A stretch of DNA of 64,000 bases, from NCBI GenBank assembly GCA_965215505.1, contig OZ244065.1:5856001-5920000 (forward strand), read 5' to 3'. The notes below the pieces were generated by a model that was given only the letters and a program-made list of their open reading frames with translations, did no database searches and had not been told where the DNA came from. Source of the stretch: Capsulimonadaceae bacterium (lineage in GTDB: Bacteria; Armatimonadota; Armatimonadia; Armatimonadales; Capsulimonadaceae). Shown in pieces: positions 11,498 to 30,376 of this stretch. Made by a program: the position numbers and the translations under genes. The first letter of the stretch is position 1. Each line of letters opens with the position of its first letter.

Positions 11498-12142
11498 TTG
11501 CAACACCTAATCGACGGCATTACACACATCATTTCCGCCCTCGGCTACCCCGGCGTCCTCCTGCTGATGACCCTGGAGTCCGCCTGCATCCCCGTCCCCA
11601 GCGAGGCGATCATGCCCTTCGCCGGGGCGCAGATCTCCCACCCGACCGGCGGCTTCCACCCCAGCCTCTGGGCGCTGGCCTTCACCGGGGCCTTGGGCAA
11701 CCTGATCGGCTCGGTCATCGCCTACTGGGTCGGCCACTTCGGGGGCCGGCCCTTCCTGAGCAAGTACGGCAAGTACGTCCTCATCCGCCAGCGCGACATT
11801 GACAAGGCCGACGAGTTCTTCCACAGGCACGGCGACATCACCGCCCTGTTCAGCCGGTGGCTGCCCATCGTCCGCACCTTCATCTCGCTGCCCGCCGGCA
11901 TCTCCCGGATGAACTTCCCCAAGTTCTGCCTTTACACGTTTGTCGGGGCCCTCCCTTTCTGCTATCTGCTGGCTTGGGCGGGCGTCAAGTTCGGCGAACA
12001 CATGGAGACGATCAAGGCCGCCCTGCACAAAGCCGACTTCGCCGTCACCGCCGTTCTGGTCGTCCTGTTCGGGCTGTGGCTGTGGCACCACCTGCGGCCC
12101 GAACCGGAAGAGGCCGGAACAAACCCGACACCGGCCTCGTAA
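11498..12142 (+). CDS. DedA family membrane protein
   Basis: LESACIPVPSEAIMPFAG, SRWLPIVRTFISLPAG. Confidence 0.93.
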   Translation: MQHLIDGITHIISALGYPGVLLLMTLESACIPVPSEAIMPFAGAQISHPTGGFHPSLWALAFTGALGNLIGSVIAYWVGHFGGRPFLSKYGKYVLIRQRDIDKADEFFHRHGDITALFSRWLPIVRTFISLPAGISRMNFPKFCLYTFVGALPFCYLLAWAGVKFGEHMETIKAALHKADFAVTAVLVVLFGLWLWHHLRPEPEEAGTNPTPAS

Positions 12143-12170: not shown

Positions 12171-12194
12171 CATGGTATAATAGTAGATACCATG
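12171..12194 (+). promoter_or_regulatory. Extended -10 (TGGTATAAT) embedded in the inverted repeat CATGGTAT-N8-ATACCATG
   Basis: Perfect 8-bp inverted repeat overlapping a consensus extended -10 upstream of the prkA leader. Confidence 0.6.
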
Positions 12195-12433: not shown

Positions 12434-12506
12434 CAAAGTGCAGGCATCACGCAGCATAACGCAATCAAATCATCGAACAACCTATCGGACGCGGAAAGGA
12501 TACAGA

Positions 12507-14438
12507 ATGAGCACCTGGGATATTCTGAAGCAGGCGGAAGAGCAGAGGCAGACGGCAGACAAGCTGCACTGGGAGGGCACGTTCAAAGACTATTTGGACA
12601 TCGTCGCCAAAAACCCCAAAGTGGCCGACCTCTCGCACGCCCGGATGTACGACATGATCAGCGCGGCGGGCGTGGAGGACCCCGGCGAGGGGCAGCCCAA
12701 AGTTTACAAGTTCTTTGAGGGCGAGCTGTTCGGCATGGAGCGGACGATCCAGCACCTCGTGGAAGAATACTTCGCGCCCGCCGCCCGCCGCCTGGACATC
12801 CGCAAGCGGATTCTGATGCTGGTCGGCCCGGTCGGCGGCGGCAAGTCCACGCTCTCCACGCTGCTCAAGAAGGGCCTGGAGAAGTATTCCAAGACCGACG
12901 AGGGCGCGGTGTACGCCATCAAAGGCTCGCCGATGCACGAGGAGCCGCTGCACCTGATCCCCGAGGACCTGCGCGACACCTTCAAACAGCAGTTCGGCAT
13001 CCACATTGAAGGTGACCTGGACCCCGTGGACGCGCATAGGCTCAAGCACGAGTGGGGCGGCCGGATTGACGACGTGCCCGTGGAGCGCATCACGCTCTCC
13101 GAGCGGGAGCGGCGCGGCATCGGCACCTTCAAGCCCGCCGATCCCAAGTCCCAGGACGTGGCCGAGCTGACCGGCTCGGTCAACATCCAGGCCCTCACCG
13201 AGTACGGCCTGGAGTCCGACCCGCGCGCCTACAACTTCGACGGGGAGCTGAACATCGCCAACCGGGGCGTCATCGAGTTCATCGAGATGCTGAAGGCCGA
13301 GAAGCGGTTCCTTTACGAGCTGAACACCGTCGCGGGCGAGCAGACCATCAAGGCGTCGCGCTTCGCCCTCATCTACGCGGACCTGGTCGTGCTGGCGCAC
13401 ACCAACGAGTACGAGTATAACTCTTACTTCGGCAACAAAGAGAACGAGGCGATGATCGACCGCATCTTCGTCGTCCGCGTCCCCTACAACCTGCGGCTGA
13501 CCGAGGAAATCAAGATCTACGAAAAGCTGATCGGCCAGTCCCAGCTCTCCGAGGACCGCGCGGACCTGACCGCCGTCCACATCGCCCCGCACACCCTGCG
13601 GACCGCCTCCATGTTCGCCCTGCTGACGCGCCTGAAGCCGTCCAAGAAGTCGGGGCTGTCGCTGATGACCAAGCTGAAGCTGTACGACGGCGAGAAGCAG
13701 GTGGGCGACTGGGACCAGAAGCACATCCGCGAGCTACAGGACGAGTTCATGGACGAGGGCATGAGCGGCGTCTCCCCCCGCTTCGTCATCAACCGCATCT
13801 CCGCCGCCCTGGTCAAAGGCGGCAAGGGCTACGTCACGCCCATTGACGTCCTGCGCGGGATGCGCGACGGCCTCCAAGAATACACCAGCAGCGAGGAGGA
13901 GCATCGCCGCCTGCTGGGCTTCATTGACGAGACGCGCAAGGACTACGACGAGCTGGCGAAGAAGGAGGTCCAGCGCGCCTTCGTCTACTCCTACGAGGAG
14001 TCGGCCAAGACCCTGCTGGAGAACTATTTGGACAACGTGGACGCCTTCTGCAACCGCACCAAGGTCAAGGACCCCATCACCAGCGACGACGTGGAACCCG
14101 ACGAGCGCCTCATGAGGAGCATCGAAGAGCAGATCGGCGTTTCGGAGAACGCCAAGCGCGAGTTCCGCGAGGGCATCATGCGCTCCGTCGCCTCCGTCTC
14201 CCGCCGGGGCGGGTCCTTCGGCGTCGGCACCGACGAGCGCCTGAAAGAAGCGCTGGAGAAGAAGCTGTTCTCCGACCTCAAAGACATCGTCAAGATCACG
14301 ACCAGCACCAAGACGCCTAACCAGGAGCAACTACGCCGCATCAACGACGTGGTGGACCGCCTGGTGAAAGACCAGGGCTACACCGAGCAGTCCGCCAACG
14401 AGCTGCTGAAGTACGTCGGCACGCTGCTCAATCGGTAA
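12507..14438 (+). CDS. prkA: PrkA/YeaG family AAA+ serine protein kinase
   Basis: Walker A GPVGGGKST, SPMHEEPLHLIP, DPRAYNFDGELNIANRG, EGMSGVSPRF. Confidence 0.95.
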   Translation: MSTWDILKQAEEQRQTADKLHWEGTFKDYLDIVAKNPKVADLSHARMYDMISAAGVEDPGEGQPKVYKFFEGELFGMERTIQHLVEEYFAPAARRLDIRKRILMLVGPVGGGKSTLSTLLKKGLEKYSKTDEGAVYAIKGSPMHEEPLHLIPEDLRDTFKQQFGIHIEGDLDPVDAHRLKHEWGGRIDDVPVERITLSERERRGIGTFKPADPKSQDVAELTGSVNIQALTEYGLESDPRAYNFDGELNIANRGVIEFIEMLKAEKRFLYELNTVAGEQTIKASRFALIYADLVVLAHTNEYEYNSYFGNKENEAMIDRIFVVRVPYNLRLTEEIKIYEKLIGQSQLSEDRADLTAVHIAPHTLRTASMFALLTRLKPSKKSGLSLMTKLKLYDGEKQVGDWDQKHIRELQDEFMDEGMSGVSPRFVINRISAALVKGGKGYVTPIDVLRGMRDGLQEYTSSEEEHRRLLGFIDETRKDYDELAKKEVQRAFVYSYEESAKTLLENYLDNVDAFCNRTKVKDPITSDDVEPDERLMRSIEEQIGVSENAKREFREGIMRSVASVSRRGGSFGVGTDERLKEALEKKLFSDLKDIVKITTSTKTPNQEQLRRINDVVDRLVKDQGYTEQSANELLKYVGTLLNR

Positions 14439-24890: not shown

Positions 24891-26291
24891 GTGCATTGCC
24901 ACGACTGCAACACGGCCAACACCGTGGACAGCAAATATTGTAAAGAATGCGGTGCCAAGATCAACGAGGGATACCGGACGATGATGCTGTCGGTCCAGGA
25001 CCTCCCGTTAGGCCAGAGTGATGAAACCCTGGACCGTCTGACGCGCCTGCTGGACATGGCCTTCTGGCACAACGAGGCGGGCAACCTCGCCGCCGCCATC
25101 ACGGCGAGTGAGGCGGCCCTCGCGATCAACCCCAACTCCACCACGGCGCATTCCCTGCTGGGATCGCTCTACGAGAAGAAGGGCGACGACGCCCAGGCCA
25201 TCAACCACTTTGAAGCGGTCCTGGCCCTGAACCCGGAGAGCGCCGCCGATGCCGCCAAGCTGGACCAGATCCGGCGTGGCGTCCACGTCAAGGCCGTCGC
25301 GCCGCCGATCACGCACCAGCTGGTGCCGCCGGTCCTGGTGAAGCTCGGGCCGACACTGCGGCAGAAGTGGGCGGGGCTGTCCGAGGCCACTGCCTTGCGC
25401 GCAGGCGAGCCGGGGCTTGGCCTCCAGCGCCGGCCGCTCTATGCGGCGGGCGCGGTCGCGGGGGTCGTCCTGCTGGCGGGCCTGGCTGTGGCGCGGCCCT
25501 GGGCCGGCACACAGACGGCCGGGAACACGGTCCCCGCCGCGCCGCAGCCTAGCTCCGCAAGCCGTTCAGCCTTCGCCGGAATGGTGGCCTCGGCTGCCCC
25601 TGTCGCCGCACCCGCCCCGCCGCTCATCCTGACGCCCGCGCCGCCTTCGGGGACAGCCTCGTATCCGGCCCCAACGGCCGTGACACATGACCCCTTCGTC
25701 GGGCGCGTACCTGCGCCCACCCCACCGGACACCGCCTCGCCCGCCTGGTCCCTGCCCCCCGTACTCCCCCACGCGGCGGCTGCCCGGCGACGCCGACTAG
25801 CCGGCCATGATCTGCCGCCCCTGCGCCTGGCCGCCCTGCCCATGGTCAGCTCCGACGGGGGTATCGCGCCCGCGCCGGTCACCCTGCCTGCGGGCGTCAC
25901 GGCCCCGATGGCGTCCATCGCCTCCATCCCCCAGCACACGGTCGTCGTCGGCTCGCTCGCGGGCGGGACGGGCAGCGTGCCCGCCCAACCCGATGCGCCC
26001 TCGCACATCCGCATCACGGTCCACCAGGTCAGCGACGCCGACAACGCCGACGCCCCGATCGAGTCGAGTGGCGGGAGCGCGCCGGACGGCGGCAGTGCGA
26101 AGGGAGCCTCCTACCAGGAGAACGCCCTGTCCTTGCAGCAGGGCGGCCAGTTCAAGCAGGCGCGTCTCGCCTACCAGCGCGCCATCCGCGCGTATGAGTC
26201 GCAGATTGCTTCCGGGCAGGACTTGGAAACCGCCCAGCGCGGCCTCGCGGCCTGCCAGACAGGACTTCAGATTTGTCAGCAAAGCCAGTAG
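24891..26291 (+). CDS. Zinc-ribbon + TPR membrane protein with Pro-rich region
   Basis: CHDC...CKECG, TPR (AHSLLGSLYEKKGD), TM helix, Pro/Ala-rich segment. Confidence 0.8.
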   Translation: MHCHDCNTANTVDSKYCKECGAKINEGYRTMMLSVQDLPLGQSDETLDRLTRLLDMAFWHNEAGNLAAAITASEAALAINPNSTTAHSLLGSLYEKKGDDAQAINHFEAVLALNPESAADAAKLDQIRRGVHVKAVAPPITHQLVPPVLVKLGPTLRQKWAGLSEATALRAGEPGLGLQRRPLYAAGAVAGVVLLAGLAVARPWAGTQTAGNTVPAAPQPSSASRSAFAGMVASAAPVAAPAPPLILTPAPPSGTASYPAPTAVTHDPFVGRVPAPTPPDTASPAWSLPPVLPHAAAARRRRLAGHDLPPLRLAALPMVSSDGGIAPAPVTLPAGVTAPMASIASIPQHTVVVGSLAGGTGSVPAQPDAPSHIRITVHQVSDADNADAPIESSGGSAPDGGSAKGASYQENALSLQQGGQFKQARLAYQRAIRAYESQIASGQDLETAQRGLAACQTGLQICQQSQ

Positions 26292-28339
26292 ACGCCGCCC
26301 GCCTCGGCCTTGCCGCCCTGTGCCTGCTGGCCGGCGGCCTGGCCCCCGCCCGTGCCAAAGCCCCGCTGCCGACCGTGTTGCTTTTCCCGGCGACGGCCTC
26401 TGACGTGCCCGCGATGGTGGACCTGCGGACGCGCCTCCGTCTCGACGGCGTCCTCCAGGCCCTGACCTACGACCCCGACTCGGCCTCGGTCAAGCGGGTG
26501 GCATCGGAAACCTCGCACCCGGAGTGGCTGATTGGGACGCTCTCCGACAACGCCCGCTTGGCCCTGGCCCGTGCCCTTGGGGTGGCCTTCTACGCCGTGG
26601 TCAGCCCCGGACGCCAGAGCGACAGCACCCACATTGAGCTTGTCCAAACCGCCCCGCCCGCCCTCACTTTCGACTGGTACGGCGTCAACCGGCAGTATGG
26701 GGCGCGTGCCTTAGAATCTCAGGCCCAAGCCGCGCTCGGGCCGGTCGCCCAAGCCGCCAGCATCCCCGCGCCCACTTCCGGCGCGATGGCTTCGGCTCCC
26801 GGTATCTCGGCACCCGCGTTCGCCGTTCCCGCTCCCGCGCCCGTGGTGGTCGCCCCCGCTCCCGCGCCCGTGGTGGTCGCCCCCGCTCCCGCGCCCGTGG
26901 TGGTCGCCCCCGCTCCCGCGCCCGTGGTGGTCGCCCCCGTTGCTCCTGCTGCTCCCAGGCCCTTTATCACTGCGCCGCCTGCGTTGCCTCCAGTAATAGC
27001 ATCGCCCGCCGGACCTGCCCCCGTCGTCAAACCTGTTCCTGTCCCGGAGCCGGCTCGAATCGCGGTCAATCCGGTGCCGACATCCGTGGCAACTCCGATG
27101 CCCGTGCCGGTCATCGCGCCGCCCGTGCCGGTCATCGCGCCGCCCGTGCCGGTCATCGCGCCGCCCGTGCCGGTCATTGCGTTGCCTGTCCCGATCACCA
27201 CGCCGCCTGCTGCCCGCGTCGCCGCGCCTGTTCCCCAGGCCACCAAAGCCGCACCGCCTGCTCCGGCCGTCGTGCCCCGCGCTCCTGTGCCCCTCGTGGC
27301 TGCCCTGCCGCCACGCCCGAGCATCTTCGCCCCGCCGACGCCACAGGACTTCACGGCCATACCACCCGCCCGGCCCGCACCGGCCCGTGACGTCATTGCC
27401 CCCGTCAAGCCTGCCCCTAATGCGGAAGACCTCGCAGCCATCGCGCCGCTGATGCGGAAGGGCGACGCCGCCCTGGAAGGCGGCGACGTCGTCGGGGCCA
27501 TCGCTCTGTACCGTCAGGCCGTCAACGGCGCTCCTCTGAGCCTTGTCCCGCGCCTCAAACTGGCACAGGCATACCAGAAGGGCGGGTTGAGCGAGAAGGC
27601 ACTCAGCGAGGCACAGCGCGCGCTGGAGATCGCGCCGGACAACCAGCCGGTGCAGCAGTTCCTCTCCGAACTGGACCAGGAGAACGGCACCTCAGACGGC
27701 ACCCTGGCCCGCTACCGTGTCCTGATCGAGCATAACGCCGATGAACCGGCCGCCCATGCCGGGCTGGCCGAGGCCCTGTGGAACAGCGGCGACCTGAGCG
27801 GGGCAGAAACCGAATACAAGACCGCCAAGCGGCTGGCACCTCCCGGCGACCACACCGCCGATGCCCACCTCGCCCAGCTTTATGCCACCCAGGCCCGCTA
27901 CGATGACTGCCTGGCCGCACTCCAGGAAGCCGGCAAGGACGGTTACGCGCTGGCCCTCAAGATCGTCAAGAACCGCGCGGACACACTCAGCGGCACCATC
28001 GAAGCCTCGCGCGAGGCCTTCGCCGGCGGCAAGAGTACGCGCGAGCAGTTCTACGACGGGGCTAAGACGACCGACTCCCAGGCCCAGGCGCTGGCCGGCT
28101 TCGTCGCCCGCGTCACCCCTCCCGCCGAGTACAAGCTGTCTCACCTGCACCGGATGCTCTCCACCAACCTGCTCGCGCAGGAGGCGGCCACCCTGCGGGC
28201 CTTCATCGAAACCGGCGATGCCAAGCAGAGCGACAGCGTCTCCAAACTGGAGAAGGCCGCCCAGACCGAGATGCTGACCGCCCAGGCGGCGGAGGAGAAA
28301 CTCGGCCTGTGGGATAGGAACAGCGAAGCCAGGAAGTAA
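26273..28339 (+). CDS. Secreted TPR protein with long Pro-rich repeat linker
   Basis: Signal peptide, APAPVVVAP and PVPVIAP repeats, C-terminal TPRs. Confidence 0.8.
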   Translation: MSAKPVDAARLGLAALCLLAGGLAPARAKAPLPTVLLFPATASDVPAMVDLRTRLRLDGVLQALTYDPDSASVKRVASETSHPEWLIGTLSDNARLALARALGVAFYAVVSPGRQSDSTHIELVQTAPPALTFDWYGVNRQYGARALESQAQAALGPVAQAASIPAPTSGAMASAPGISAPAFAVPAPAPVVVAPAPAPVVVAPAPAPVVVAPAPAPVVVAPVAPAAPRPFITAPPALPPVIASPAGPAPVVKPVPVPEPARIAVNPVPTSVATPMPVPVIAPPVPVIAPPVPVIAPPVPVIALPVPITTPPAARVAAPVPQATKAAPPAPAVVPRAPVPLVAALPPRPSIFAPPTPQDFTAIPPARPAPARDVIAPVKPAPNAEDLAAIAPLMRKGDAALEGGDVVGAIALYRQAVNGAPLSLVPRLKLAQAYQKGGLSEKALSEAQRALEIAPDNQPVQQFLSELDQENGTSDGTLARYRVLIEHNADEPAAHAGLAEALWNSGDLSGAETEYKTAKRLAPPGDHTADAHLAQLYATQARYDDCLAALQEAGKDGYALALKIVKNRADTLSGTIEASREAFAGGKSTREQFYDGAKTTDSQAQALAGFVARVTPPAEYKLSHLHRMLSTNLLAQEAATLRAFIETGDAKQSDSVSKLEKAAQTEMLTAQAAEEKLGLWDRNSEARK
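26830..26938 (+). repeat. 27-bp coding tandem repeat x4 (APAPVVVAP)
   Basis: gctcccgcgcccgtggtggtcgccccc repeated. Confidence 0.9.
27101..27181 (+). repeat. 21-bp coding tandem repeat x~4 (PVPVIAP)
   Basis: cccgtgccggtcatcgcgccg repeated. Confidence 0.9.
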
Positions 28340-28361: not shown

Positions 28362-29099
28362 ATGTCGTTATGGAACCAGTGGCTGCCTGGGGCGTCGGAC
28401 GCGGCGGAGGCCGAGCGCGTCCCACTGCCGCGCGTCGGCGAGACCGTCCGGATCCACGCGGTGGGGGATGCCTACCTCGGCGTCTACCATTCGCGAGTCC
28501 GCGCTGTCGGCCCGCGCCGGATCACGCTGAACAGCCCCGAGGCGGCGGGTTCCTCGGAGACGGTGGGCGATGTCGCCCACATCCTCCCGGTCTATACGCC
28601 GCTGACGCTCTCCTTCATCCGGGCGGATGAGCTGTACCAGTGCGAGACGCGCGTCGTCGGGCCGGTCAAGGCGGGGACCCTCACCGTCGCCCGCCCGCGC
28701 CTCATCACGCGCGTCCAGCGCCGCCAGTTCTACCGCCTGCCGCTGCACTCGCATACCCATTTCCGGGTGCGCGGTGAGACCGGCAGCACCGCCCTCATCC
28801 CCGCCCGGCTGGTCAACCTGTCCGGCGGCGGCGCGCTCCTCGCCTCCCCCAAGCCAGTCCTCGGCGGCCTCCGCGTCAGCCTCCGCGTCCCGTCCGGCAA
28901 AGACGGCGAGCCGCTGGAAGTGGAGGCCGACGCCCTCGACTGCCGGGTGACGACCCAAGGCACGGCGCGCACCTACCTGGTTCGCCTCCGCTTCCTCGGC
29001 CCGCCGCTCCTGACGGAAGAGGACCGCGACGAGATCGTCGCCTACATCTTCGAGCAGCAGCGCTTCCTCCTGCGGAACCGGAAACTCCTGCGGGCGTGA
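28362..29099 (+). CDS. YcgR-like PilZ domain (c-di-GMP binding) flagellar brake protein
   Basis: QRRQFYR (RxxxR) and NLSGGG ((D/N)xSxxG) motifs. Confidence 0.85.
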   Translation: MSLWNQWLPGASDAAEAERVPLPRVGETVRIHAVGDAYLGVYHSRVRAVGPRRITLNSPEAAGSSETVGDVAHILPVYTPLTLSFIRADELYQCETRVVGPVKAGTLTVARPRLITRVQRRQFYRLPLHSHTHFRVRGETGSTALIPARLVNLSGGGALLASPKPVLGGLRVSLRVPSGKDGEPLEVEADALDCRVTTQGTARTYLVRLRFLGPPLLTEEDRDEIVAYIFEQQRFLLRNRKLLRA

Positions 29100-29113
29100 C
29101 CGCTTGCTGAGAC

Positions 29114-29160
29114 AAAAAAATGCCTGTGGCCGATTCGCGGAAAGCGTTTCAGCCACAGGC
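29114..29160 (-). terminator. Intrinsic terminator for a minus-strand transcript
   Basis: Stem gcctgtggc...gccacaggc (29122-29160) with an A7 run on the plus strand, giving U7 on the minus strand. Confidence 0.8.
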
Positions 29161-29315
29161 TCCGCCAGAAAGGCGGATCTTGAAAAGGAGGACATGCGCC
29201 CTTTAACCTACGCACGGACGTTCCGAAAAGTTCCGGTGGGGGCGTAAAGCACCCATTTCTGTCCCTGGGTATCCTGTATTCTTCCTCACTACTGGTGGCA
29301 CCCGGAGTGCGTGCC
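29114..29315 (-). ncRNA. Candidate small RNA (~200 nt), unassigned family
   Basis: Own promoter, several hairpins and a minus-strand intrinsic terminator, between two plus-strand genes. Confidence 0.6.
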
Positions 29316-29321
29316 TGCATG

Positions 29322-29350
29322 ATTGTAACCCCACATTAACCCCCCGCCAA
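29322..29350 (-). promoter_or_regulatory. sigma70-type promoter TTGGCG-N17-TACAAT
   Basis: Plus strand attgta at 29322-29327 and cgccaa at 29345-29350. Confidence 0.6.
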
Positions 29351-29395
29351 ACCCCCGGCATTTACATACGAGAGCCTATAGGCTAAAATAAGGGC

Positions 29396-30376
29396 ATGGA
29401 ACGACGCGCGCCTTCGCAGATGTTCATCGGCGCGTCTCCTCACGCTGGCCGTATGCCTCTCCCGATCCTTTGCTTGATGATCGGCATTAATCTTCTGTGG
29501 TCAGGGTCGGGCCTCGCGGCCAAGATCGCGCTCCACAGCATCCCCCCCATGACCCTGGCGTTTGCCCGGTTCGCCATCGCCGCTCTGCTGATGTACGCCC
29601 TCGCCCTCGCGCTCAAGATAGACCTCCGGGTCGCGCGGCGCGACTGGGGCATGTTCTGGGCGATGGGCGTTCTCGGCCTGGCCCTCACGTACTTGCTGCA
29701 ATACATGGGTCTGCGGCTGACTACGGTGTCCAATGCCGCTCTGCTGCATGCCACCGAGACCGTTTTCCTCTCACTCCTGGCCTTCTTTTTCCTCCGGGAA
29801 GCCATGCCGAAGGCCAAAATCGCCGGCATCACGCTCGGCCTGGTCGGCGTTTATCTGATCGTCGCCAACGGCCTGAGACCGCCCGCGTTCTCCGGCATGA
29901 CACAAGGGAATTTGCTGATTGCCCTGGCCCTCGCCTTTGAGGCCGCCTCCAGCATCGTAGGCAAGGGCCTGGTGGCCCGCTACCCCATCCACTCGGTCGT
30001 CACCTACCAAATGTTGAGCGGCGCGGTCGCCCTGGCGCCGTTCTCCGCCTATGAGCTGACACGGATGATCTCCCAGGGTCATGCGCTGGCGGTCCCGCCC
30101 GCGCCTGCCTTGTGGAGCCTAGCCTACCTCATCCTCCCCTGCACCGTGTTCGGCTATATGGTCTGGTTCACCATCCTGGACAAGCATGAGGCCGGCGAGA
30201 TGTCCGTGTTCCTGTTCATTCAGCCCGTTGCCGGCGCATTCCTCGGTGCCTATTTCCTGGGAGACCCGATCACCACGTTCACTGTGGCGGGCGCCGTCCT
30301 CGTCCTCCTCGCCGTCGGCCTGGTCAACCGGAGGCCTTCCGCCCCGCAGCCCTCGCCGGCACCGCCGGGGCCGTGA
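29396..30376 (+). CDS. DMT/EamA family transporter
   Basis: About 10 TM segments, PPMTLAFARF, FLFIQPV, GDPIT; promoter TTTACA-N17-TAAAAT ends 6 nt before the ATG. Confidence 0.9.
   Translation: MERRAPSQMFIGASPHAGRMPLPILCLMIGINLLWSGSGLAAKIALHSIPPMTLAFARFAIAALLMYALALALKIDLRVARRDWGMFWAMGVLGLALTYLLQYMGLRLTTVSNAALLHATETVFLSLLAFFFLREAMPKAKIAGITLGLVGVYLIVANGLRPPAFSGMTQGNLLIALALAFEAASSIVGKGLVARYPIHSVVTYQMLSGAVALAPFSAYELTRMISQGHALAVPPAPALWSLAYLILPCTVFGYMVWFTILDKHEAGEMSVFLFIQPVAGAFLGAYFLGDPITTFTVAGAVLVLLAVGLVNRRPSAPQPSPAPPGP

Follow-up and report, generated by a model that had tools for sequence, protein, structure and literature searches.

A predicted small RNA family with an anti-Shine-Dalgarno seed and a SigE-like promoter motif in Armatimonadota

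We analyzed a stretch of 64,000 nucleotides (nt) of a Capsulimonadaceae bacterium (contig OZ244065.1, positions 5,856,001 to 5,920,000; hereafter the window) and, within it, a minus-strand element lying between a PilZ-domain gene and an EamA transporter gene. The conserved unit extends from 29234 to 29114 and consists of GGAAC-N17-CGTA, a further 9-10 nt, the near-invariant sequence GCGCAUGUCCUCCUUUUCA, a covarying hairpin and a covarying terminator. It probably specifies a trans-acting small RNA (sRNA) of about 87 nt, which would be transcribed from a SigE-like promoter of the extracytoplasmic function (ECF) type and would block ribosome binding through an anti-Shine-Dalgarno (anti-SD) seed. 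This is a new RNA family with a familiar regulatory logic in a little-studied phylum; judged from its sequence, the predicted sRNA is mostly single-copy and spread through Armatimonadota. A preliminary description of the window had proposed an orphan sRNA gene on the minus strand that contains an anti-SD stretch and ends at a terminator of its own, and our sequence analysis supports that proposal. The length suggested at the same time is revised here, and the suggested mode of action and link to the PilZ gene were not supported, as detailed below.

DNA searches of 40 relatives detected similarity (E <= 1.6e-7) in 18, and with one exception only positions 29241-29109 were covered. Similarity over the full length of the adjoining stretch, 29235-29316, was seen in one of the 40 (79% identity). 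What is conserved among relatives is the 3′ 130 nt of the 203-nt RNA (29316-29114) that corresponds to the initial proposal. A 19-nt exact match, GCGCATGTCCTCCTTTTCA, was present in genomes of a second family. We aligned 27 copies from the two families and built the covariance model R1 from this alignment. The copies aligned cleanly. Their conserved elements, from 5′ to 3′, are GGAAC, CGTA and the 19-mer, then a short hairpin (in the window, UCCGCC/GGCGGA) and a terminator hairpin with a T run. Excluded from all alignments was locus L020 (G012:C109), the second match in that genome and a near-copy of the sRNA terminator hairpin alone, which shares just the terminator with the family; it adjoins, tail-to-head, the beginning of a prepilin-like gene on the opposite strand (N-terminal GFTLIELLVV, named by eye).

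Model R1 found the element in 64 of the 71 genomes of the order (32/38 in family f1 and 31/32 in family f2), once per genome apart from four genomes. Among 151 genomes sampled across the phylum, 39 had a match; family f8 gave 8/8, f15 9/13 and f27 3/4, and many families gave none, which does not equal absence because the filters were strict and the model came from one order. When one genome per bacterial or archaeal species was scanned for exact copies of 17 nt of the motif, at least 119 loci were returned, 80 of which were scored with R1. Sixty gave 39.8-121.7 bits and, with one exception, carry the label Armatimonadota (Capsulimonadaceae, Armatimonadaceae, Chthonomonadales/Chthonomonas) or unclassified bacteria. 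The exception, L137, is a 116.7-bit copy on a contig of a metagenome-assembled genome labelled Janthinobacterium lividum, a record in which contigs were probably misbinned. The remaining 20 loci belong to other phyla, reach 24 bits at best or give no score, and look like chance matches in coding DNA. Measured from GCGC to the last base of the T run, the median length was 87 nt (81 members). Novelty was borne out against Rfam: cmscan of 28800-29700 at E <= 10 returned just two noise matches, to eukaryotic long non-coding RNA models (12-13 bits), and the whole window gave no match at gathering thresholds. In 48 unique loci the neighbouring genes differ from family to family, and outside the window's family they are unrelated enzymes and transporters; this fits a trans-acting RNA.

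The upstream part of the conserved unit has the geometry of a promoter. In 85 of the 88 unique members that passed a promoter-plus-terminator filter the spacing between GGAAC and CGTA is 17 nt, and CGTA is followed after 9-10 nt by GCGCAUG, again in 85/88. GGAAC and CGT are invariant and A/T-rich bases follow CGTA; the spacer has neither conserved sequence nor a shared fold. Single-sequence folds of the 27 aligned members have no common hairpin in the GGAAC..CGUA segment, and RNAalifold pairs nothing there. A spacer that is fixed in length, free in sequence and devoid of conserved structure indicates that GGAAC/CGTA is an ECF-sigma promoter. The conserved RNA would then be about 87 nt long (87-88), with a predicted start at about 29203-29199, at the anti-SD stretch. 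A study of Corynebacterium gives GGAAC-N17-18-cGTT as the sigma-H/sigma-E consensus, with a core described as identical to that of mycobacterial sigma-E promoters (PMC10012870). The promoter described here agrees with that actinobacterial consensus in the -35 element and the spacing, and its fourth -10 base is A, not T. In many members (e.g. L011, L012, L029, L033, L052, L067, L084 and L085) GGAAC is also preceded, at a distance of 5-35 nt, by a tract that is rich in A and T and in part palindromic (AAAA.TT ... AA.TTTT); this tract could be an UP-like element or an operator.

A weight-matrix scan of the source genome placed the same motif, GGAAC-N17-CGTA, 48 nt before the ATG of an ECF sigma gene of 206 amino acids (aa), which is located at G000:C1:1142167-1142787. 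This gene is followed by one for a zf-HC2 anti-sigma factor and then by one for a 520-aa protease of the DegP/HtrA family. The closest solved chain to the sigma factor bears the name SigE (E 5.8e-40); E. coli sigma-E, SigH and SigW rank behind it. An orthologue is present in all 71 genomes of the order, and in 30 of the 30 orthologues of the family that were fetched GGAAC-N17/18-CGTA stands upstream at about the same place (~48 nt). The motif also precedes 5/5 best orthologues from four other families and 0/3 second-best paralogues. Among 23 ECF-like genes of the source genome the SigE-like sigma gene is the only one with GGAAC-N17-CGTA upstream. The sRNA promoter is thus built like the autoregulatory-type promoter of the sigma operon, so the RNA is most likely made when this envelope or surface stress pathway fires.

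A related putative sRNA lies behind the same type of promoter. Second model matches in three genomes were found to be a sibling composed of GGAAC-N17-CGTC, 9-10 nt, GUGAUCUCCUU(A/U)UC, a hairpin and a U-tailed terminator. In 35 of the 71 genomes of the order a single exact copy of its composite pattern was found (reversed control, 0). That two sRNAs with CU-rich starts should follow the same promoter type strengthens the regulon reading. At L309 (G102:C24:26220-26470), in a distant family, two GGAAC-N17-CGTATA promoters are situated ~130 nt apart, and behind the first of them come another kind of CU-rich start, CCUUCCCACCCUCUUUUCUC, and then a terminator; by its sequence this locus looks like a tandem of ECF-driven sRNAs.

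The body of the RNA has conserved structure at its 3′ end. The 203-nt RNA folded with z = -3.26, and the 88-nt form with -44.6 kcal/mol and z -5.76, leaving the CCUCC core and the U run free. In the shorter fold the seed is mostly unpaired, being touched only by a weak stem of 4 base pairs (bp) with an unconserved GGG. Of the four hairpins described earlier, GGCAC..GUGCC and UCCGCC..GGCGGA recurred in the minimum-energy fold; UACCCA..UGGGUG and CGCCC..GGGCG were missing from it. RNAalifold, applied to the 27 copies, paired the two 3′ hairpins only, with compensatory changes at 10 of 16 pairs. In a 75-row model alignment 95.6% of the cells were paired and 14/16 pairs had changed on both sides; none of 500 shuffles reached that pairing, and slid controls paired at 32-44%. 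Both hairpins contribute: the upstream one, P2, has changes on both sides at 6/6 pairs (96.2% of cells paired), and the terminator at 8/10 modelled pairs.

The terminator stem, GCCUGUGGC..GCCACAGGC, formed a 12-bp interrupted stem on folding and is followed by U7; a T run follows the stem in family members. Read on the plus strand, the stem has an A7 run before it and lacks a T run after it, hence the terminator can work on the minus strand only, as had been claimed. A simple terminator scan missed this hairpin because its loop exceeds 8 nt.

The anti-SD stretch noticed originally, CAUGUCCUCCUUUUCA, is located at 29196-29181. The 3′ end of the 16S rRNA of the source genome reads ...GGAUCACCUCCUUUCU and has CCUCCUUU in common with the seed, which means that the seed is complementary to the SD sequences read by the ribosome. 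All 19 seed columns are invariant in the 27 aligned sequences of the two families. As exact-motif loci bias such conservation counts, we examined the weakest model matches. Among 13 full-length divergent members found by the model alone, which form an independent sample, CAUGUCCUCC is exact in 10 and differs by 1-3 bases in three. Crude scans of ribosome-binding sites in the source genome, made with neither gene calls nor statistics, gave candidate targets including secretin-like and polysaccharide-export-like genes (named by eye); the ranking by starts of open reading frames (ORFs) is dominated by spurious ORFs of this 66% G+C genome, and these candidates are leads only. One long complementary target was rejected on the basis of complement scans of the source genome and of the 71 genomes. 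Feedback on the sigma mRNA was rejected too: its SD sequence, GGAGGAC, pairs with the seed in the window's family and not in other families. The source genome encodes Hfq.

The RNA is unlikely to be translated. In 81 members the sense frame from the conserved AUG meets a stop in 44 (peptides of 4-32 aa) and no stop in 37, and a 17-codon plus-strand frame shifts between relatives (by eye), so that a protein-coding RNA was rejected. The earlier statement that the region holds no credible protein gene stands insofar as the frames opening at the conserved AUG/ATG are not conserved; ORFs as such do occur there, of 92 and 52 aa on the minus strand and 47 aa on the plus strand, and the 92-aa ORF crosses the terminator.

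A second promoter-like site is situated further upstream. The preliminary description had transcription start from TTGGCG-N17-TACAAT and produce some 200 nt of RNA. The site is present, matches at 9/12 positions and is one of two promoter-like sites in 28500-30000 (0.1 expected from shuffles). The promoter conserved across members is, however, the ECF-type one, which lies inside the proposed transcript. The TACAAT box is part of TTAA(T/C)-N5-(G/A)TTACAA, a motif kept in 18 of 19 loci of the same genus, in 6 of the family's 8 remaining loci and in none of the loci elsewhere (0/10 and 0/9); its distance from GGAAC varies from 20 to 104 nt. The box may give a longer isoform in the window's family or serve the divergent EamA promoter. 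It looks like two direct half-sites ~11 nt apart, and in several relatives it is separated from the EamA -35 element by ~20 nt (by eye). The two divergent genes could have it in common as a regulator site.

Taken together, these data suggest the following model. The minus-strand locus (~29200 to 29114) would be transcribed into the ~87-nt RNA by an ECF sigma factor acting at GGAAC-N17-CGTA, most likely upon envelope or surface stress. The 5′ ~19 nt, GCGCAUGUCCUCCUUUUCA, would remain unpaired; behind them come the short hairpin and a U-tailed Rho-independent terminator, the usual layout of Hfq-type sRNAs. The CCUCC core would pair with the SD sequences of target mRNAs and prevent 30S binding, with translation and probably also mRNA stability reduced. 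The sRNA would in this way be the non-coding arm of a stress regulon, a part that RybB, MicA and MicL play in the sigma-E regulon of enterobacteria. Features of the locus and of the two related loci elsewhere in the source genome are listed in Table 1.

Table 1. Positions of the predicted sRNA gene, its parts and associated features (window coordinates unless a contig is given)
Feature	Position	Strand	Remarks
ECF (SigE-like) type promoter, predicted	29209..29234	-	-35 GGAAC 29234-29230; 17-nt spacer; -10 CGTA 29212-29209
Conserved core sRNA, ~87 nt, predicted	29114..29201	-	Start predicted within 29203-29199 from the -10 position
Seed GCGCAUGUCCUCCUUUUCA	29181..29199	-	Mostly unpaired in the fold, anti-SD
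Hairpin P2 (UCCGCC / UUUCU loop / GGCGGA)	29161..29177	-	Covariation
Rho-independent terminator, predicted	29114..29160	-	Interrupted 12-bp stem (29160-29149 with 29133-29122); U7 29120-29114
Unconserved stretch from distal site to ECF promoter	29235..29316	-	Leader of a possible long isoform; three of six GGA motifs
Distal sigma-70-like site TTGGCG-N17-TACAAT	29322..29350	-	Promoter scan
Family-specific box TTAAT-N5-GTTACAAT	29339-29322	-	3′ part of the distal sigma-70-like site
Intergenic gap, 296 nt			Between PilZ-domain gene and EamA transporter gene
PilZ-domain gene	28362-29099	+	Convergent downstream neighbour, outside the element; Pfam PilZ, E 4.3e-10
EamA transporter gene	29396-30376	+	Divergent upstream neighbour, outside the element; Pfam
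EamA promoter-like site TTTACA-17-TAAAAT	29361-29389	+	6 nt between end of site and ATG
Sibling sRNA	G000:C1:~2536300-2536432	-	Outside the window; relatives L283-L295
SigE-like ECF sigma / zf-HC2 anti-sigma / HtrA-DegP protease operon	G000:C1:1142119-1145077 (L212)		Autoregulatory-type promoter

Several points weigh against this model. The transcript, its 5′ end and its induction are predictions, and we infer transcription as such, the exact 5′ end, sigma dependence, the targets, the use of Hfq and the direction of regulation. Because GGAAC..CGT promoters are common to many ECF groups, the case for this one sigma factor is circumstantial, and the first rank of the sRNA in the weight-matrix scan is by construction, since the matrix was built from sRNA promoters. 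A few members are without the motif, namely two Chthonomonas-labelled loci (L167 and L187) as well as L299 and L302, and control by the ECF promoter is therefore not universal. In the window's family the conserved TACAAT box could give a longer transcript. The alignment behind the pair counts was fitted to the model's own structure, and much of the count of seed invariance comes from exact-motif loci and so carries an ascertainment bias. With regard to targets, the source genome contains no complement of the 19-mer within two mismatches besides the sRNA gene, and one apparently chance site at three; no extended complement of the seed recurs as a target across the 71 genomes. In these genomes AAGGAGGACATG is found almost only in the sRNA gene, with extra matches at about the rate of the reversed control. 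The invariance over 19 nt consequently exceeds what SD pairing needs or explains.

The four motif-less loci named above have the seed, the hairpin and the terminator intact and no GGAAC-N17-CGTA upstream. To judge from these sequences, some Chthonomonas-labelled lineages seem to have acquired another promoter in its place.

The excess of invariance can be accommodated by supposing that the RNA is a decoy of the 16S rRNA 3′ tail, which would bind a protein or nuclease acting on that tail or titrate SD sequences globally, with no defined set of mRNAs. The 8 nt identical to the 16S tail and the failure of the scans to find a conserved extended target agree with this, as does the invariance across the phylum itself; set against them are the flanks of CCUCCUUU, which differ from those in 16S rRNA, and the arrangement of 5′ seed, hairpin and terminator, which is that of an ordinary base-pairing sRNA. 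We regard such a decoy as improbable. In a related and equally speculative form, the SigE-controlled pair of sRNAs would copy the anti-SD tail of 16S rRNA (CCUCCUUU) and act as a global brake on SD-led translation under envelope stress. If this were true, leaderless or SD-less mRNAs would be spared, for example that of the apparently leaderless EamA neighbour, and the 19-nt invariance would be ribosome-tail mimicry and not pairing to one target. Another way to read the data is that GGAAC and CGUA are parts of the RNA, serving as sites of protein binding or tertiary contact, and that transcription starts further upstream in all lineages, giving ~125 nt or more. Both motifs are invariant, the A/T-rich tract before GGAAC in many lineages could hide a -10 element, and the 5′ end is predicted, not mapped. 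Yet a fixed 17-nt spacing with free sequence and no common fold is promoter-like; the same bipartite motif stands before the ECF sigma protein gene in all 35 orthologues examined and before a second sRNA with a different body; and it equals the published sigma-E consensus (PMC10012870). This reading, too, is unlikely.

Less probable still is the proposal of the preliminary description, in which an RNA of ~200 nt from TTGGCG-N17-TACAAT acts as a CsrA sponge through GGA repeats and is tied to the PilZ neighbour and hence to c-di-GMP. Its elements are present: the promoter-like site is real, with its -10 box kept in most loci of the family; six GGA motifs were counted in the 203 nt (29316-29114); the check for CsrA gave four PF02599 matches above the cut-off in the source genome (G000:C1:1569869, 616508, 6150864 and 3522904); and PilZ is the convergent neighbour in 13 of the 48 unique loci (BLAST). 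Five of the six GGA motifs nevertheless fall in the unconserved leader or in promoter DNA; two of the six belong to GGAAC sequences, one of them being the -35 element. Conservation is lacking over the 5′ 80 nt, both in sequence (similarity in one of 40 relatives) and in length (20-104 nt). In the transcribed core of 81 members the number of GGA motifs was 0 in 7, 1 in 37, 2 in 24, 3 in 11 and 4 in 2; the single conserved GGA is paired in P2, and none is in a conserved hairpin loop. Rfam gave no CsrB/Rsm match. All 13 PilZ neighbours belong to the window's family, as do all 23 loci with EamA as the divergent neighbour (of 48, BLAST), and the box is confined to it as well, whereas the RNA is phylum-wide. 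It is scarcely credible that the gene is on the plus strand, with the strong SD sequence AAGGAGG and ATG opening a 17-codon ORF (MRPLTYARTFRKVPVGA, 29195-29248) and the minus-strand RNA acting as a cis-antisense partner of a type I toxin-antitoxin-like pair. AAGGAGGACATG is as conserved as the seed, being its complement, and a 47-aa plus-strand ORF is present in the region. But GGAGG is only 2 nt before ATG, the frame after ATG CGC shifts in relatives and stops after as few as 11 codons (by eye), the peptide is not hydrophobic, and the polarity of terminator and promoter fits the minus strand in all members. The ~87-nt SigE-type sRNA is thus the reading that we retain.

The layout of this sRNA has counterparts in known systems. 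Like the RybB/MicA group, it has a conserved unpaired seed at the extreme 5′ end (at the predicted start, in the present case) and a Rho-independent terminator, it is a stand-alone intergenic gene, and more than one sibling sRNA would belong to the regulon. RybB and MicA have seeds aimed at coding-region or 5′ untranslated region sites of porin mRNAs; the Armatimonadota seed is, by contrast, a plain anti-SD (CCUCC). There is no sequence or Rfam relationship with that group, which makes the RNA described here an analogue and not a homologue. In its sigma factor, which is accompanied by a zf-HC2 anti-sigma factor, the system stands nearer to actinobacterial SigE than to RpoE/RseA. The predicted type of promoter, that of an ECF envelope-stress sigma factor, is shared with RybB, MicA, MicL, MicV and VrrA, the sigma-E sRNAs of Proteobacteria (PMC4102768, PMC6694218). 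Outside Proteobacteria, PMC11005410 presents FoxI and FoxJ of Fusobacterium nucleatum as sigma-E-dependent sRNAs forming the non-coding arm of an ECF envelope regulon, and reports that FoxJ activates mRNAs. These come from a different phylum, and no sequence relationship is expected.

Anti-SD motifs are known from other RNAs. RsaE/RoxS of Bacillales, 6C RNA of Actinobacteria and the CcsR or 'cuckoo' CCUCCUCCC RNAs of Alphaproteobacteria have pyrimidine-rich unpaired anti-SD motifs and are broadly conserved. In these families the C-rich motifs, often present as repeats, occupy hairpin loops, unlike in the Armatimonadota RNA, which has a single motif at the predicted 5′ end and no Rfam match even at E <= 10. 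With CsrB/RsmY/RsmZ it has in common that it is a small non-coding RNA in a CsrA-encoding genome, with GGA motifs in the long form of the window; it differs from them in its core, with 0 to 4 GGA (most often one) and none in a conserved loop, and in lacking an Rfam match.

The regulatory module resembles one known from Actinobacteria. In mycobacteria the operon order is sigE-rseA-htrA, and the Armatimonadota operon, with a sigma factor, a zf-HC2 anti-sigma factor and an HtrA-family protease in this order, is of the same type. The best solved relative of the sigma factor carries the name SigE, and GGAAC-N17-CGTA resembles the actinobacterial SigE/SigH promoter (GGAAC-N17-18-cGTT; PMC10012870), differing in the last -10 base, A instead of T, and in the host phylum. 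No sRNA under actinobacterial SigE/SigH promoters turned up, and no search aimed at such sRNAs was made.

A literature search combining Armatimonadota or Armatimonadetes with sRNA found no work on regulatory RNAs of the phylum. The present family would be its first well-supported sRNA family, together with a sibling, both tied by promoter logic to a module of SigE-like sigma factor, anti-sigma factor and HtrA. If it is confirmed, one more deep bacterial lineage would be known in which an ECF stress regulon has a non-coding repressor arm. The system is compact and testable, with a 26-nt promoter and a 19-nt seed, and the cultured genera Chthonomonas, Armatimonas and Capsulimonas are among the labelled lineages. 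The covariance model and the promoter motif are directly usable for annotating Armatimonadota genomes.

Some further features were recorded around the element and in the rest of the window. In another family, Pfam alone identifies a PilZ-domain neighbour at one locus. The EamA mRNA would be leaderless or nearly so if it starts from the promoter-like site 6 nt before the ATG; the same layout, TTGACT-17-TAAAAT, a few nt and ATGGAA, is seen in relatives (by eye). No tRNA or tmRNA was found in the window. The second-best match of the source genome to the promoter matrix is GGAAC-N17-CGTA at 12116-12141 (+), at the 3′ end of a DedA-like ORF and ~300 nt upstream of a PrkA-like kinase ORF at 12438-14438 (both named by eye); an extended -10-like site, TGGTATAAT, lies at 12173-12181. 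Just upstream of the PilZ gene, a 688-aa ORF (26273-28339, +) contains long tandem repeats rich in Pro, Ala and Val (APAPVVV, PPVPVIA).

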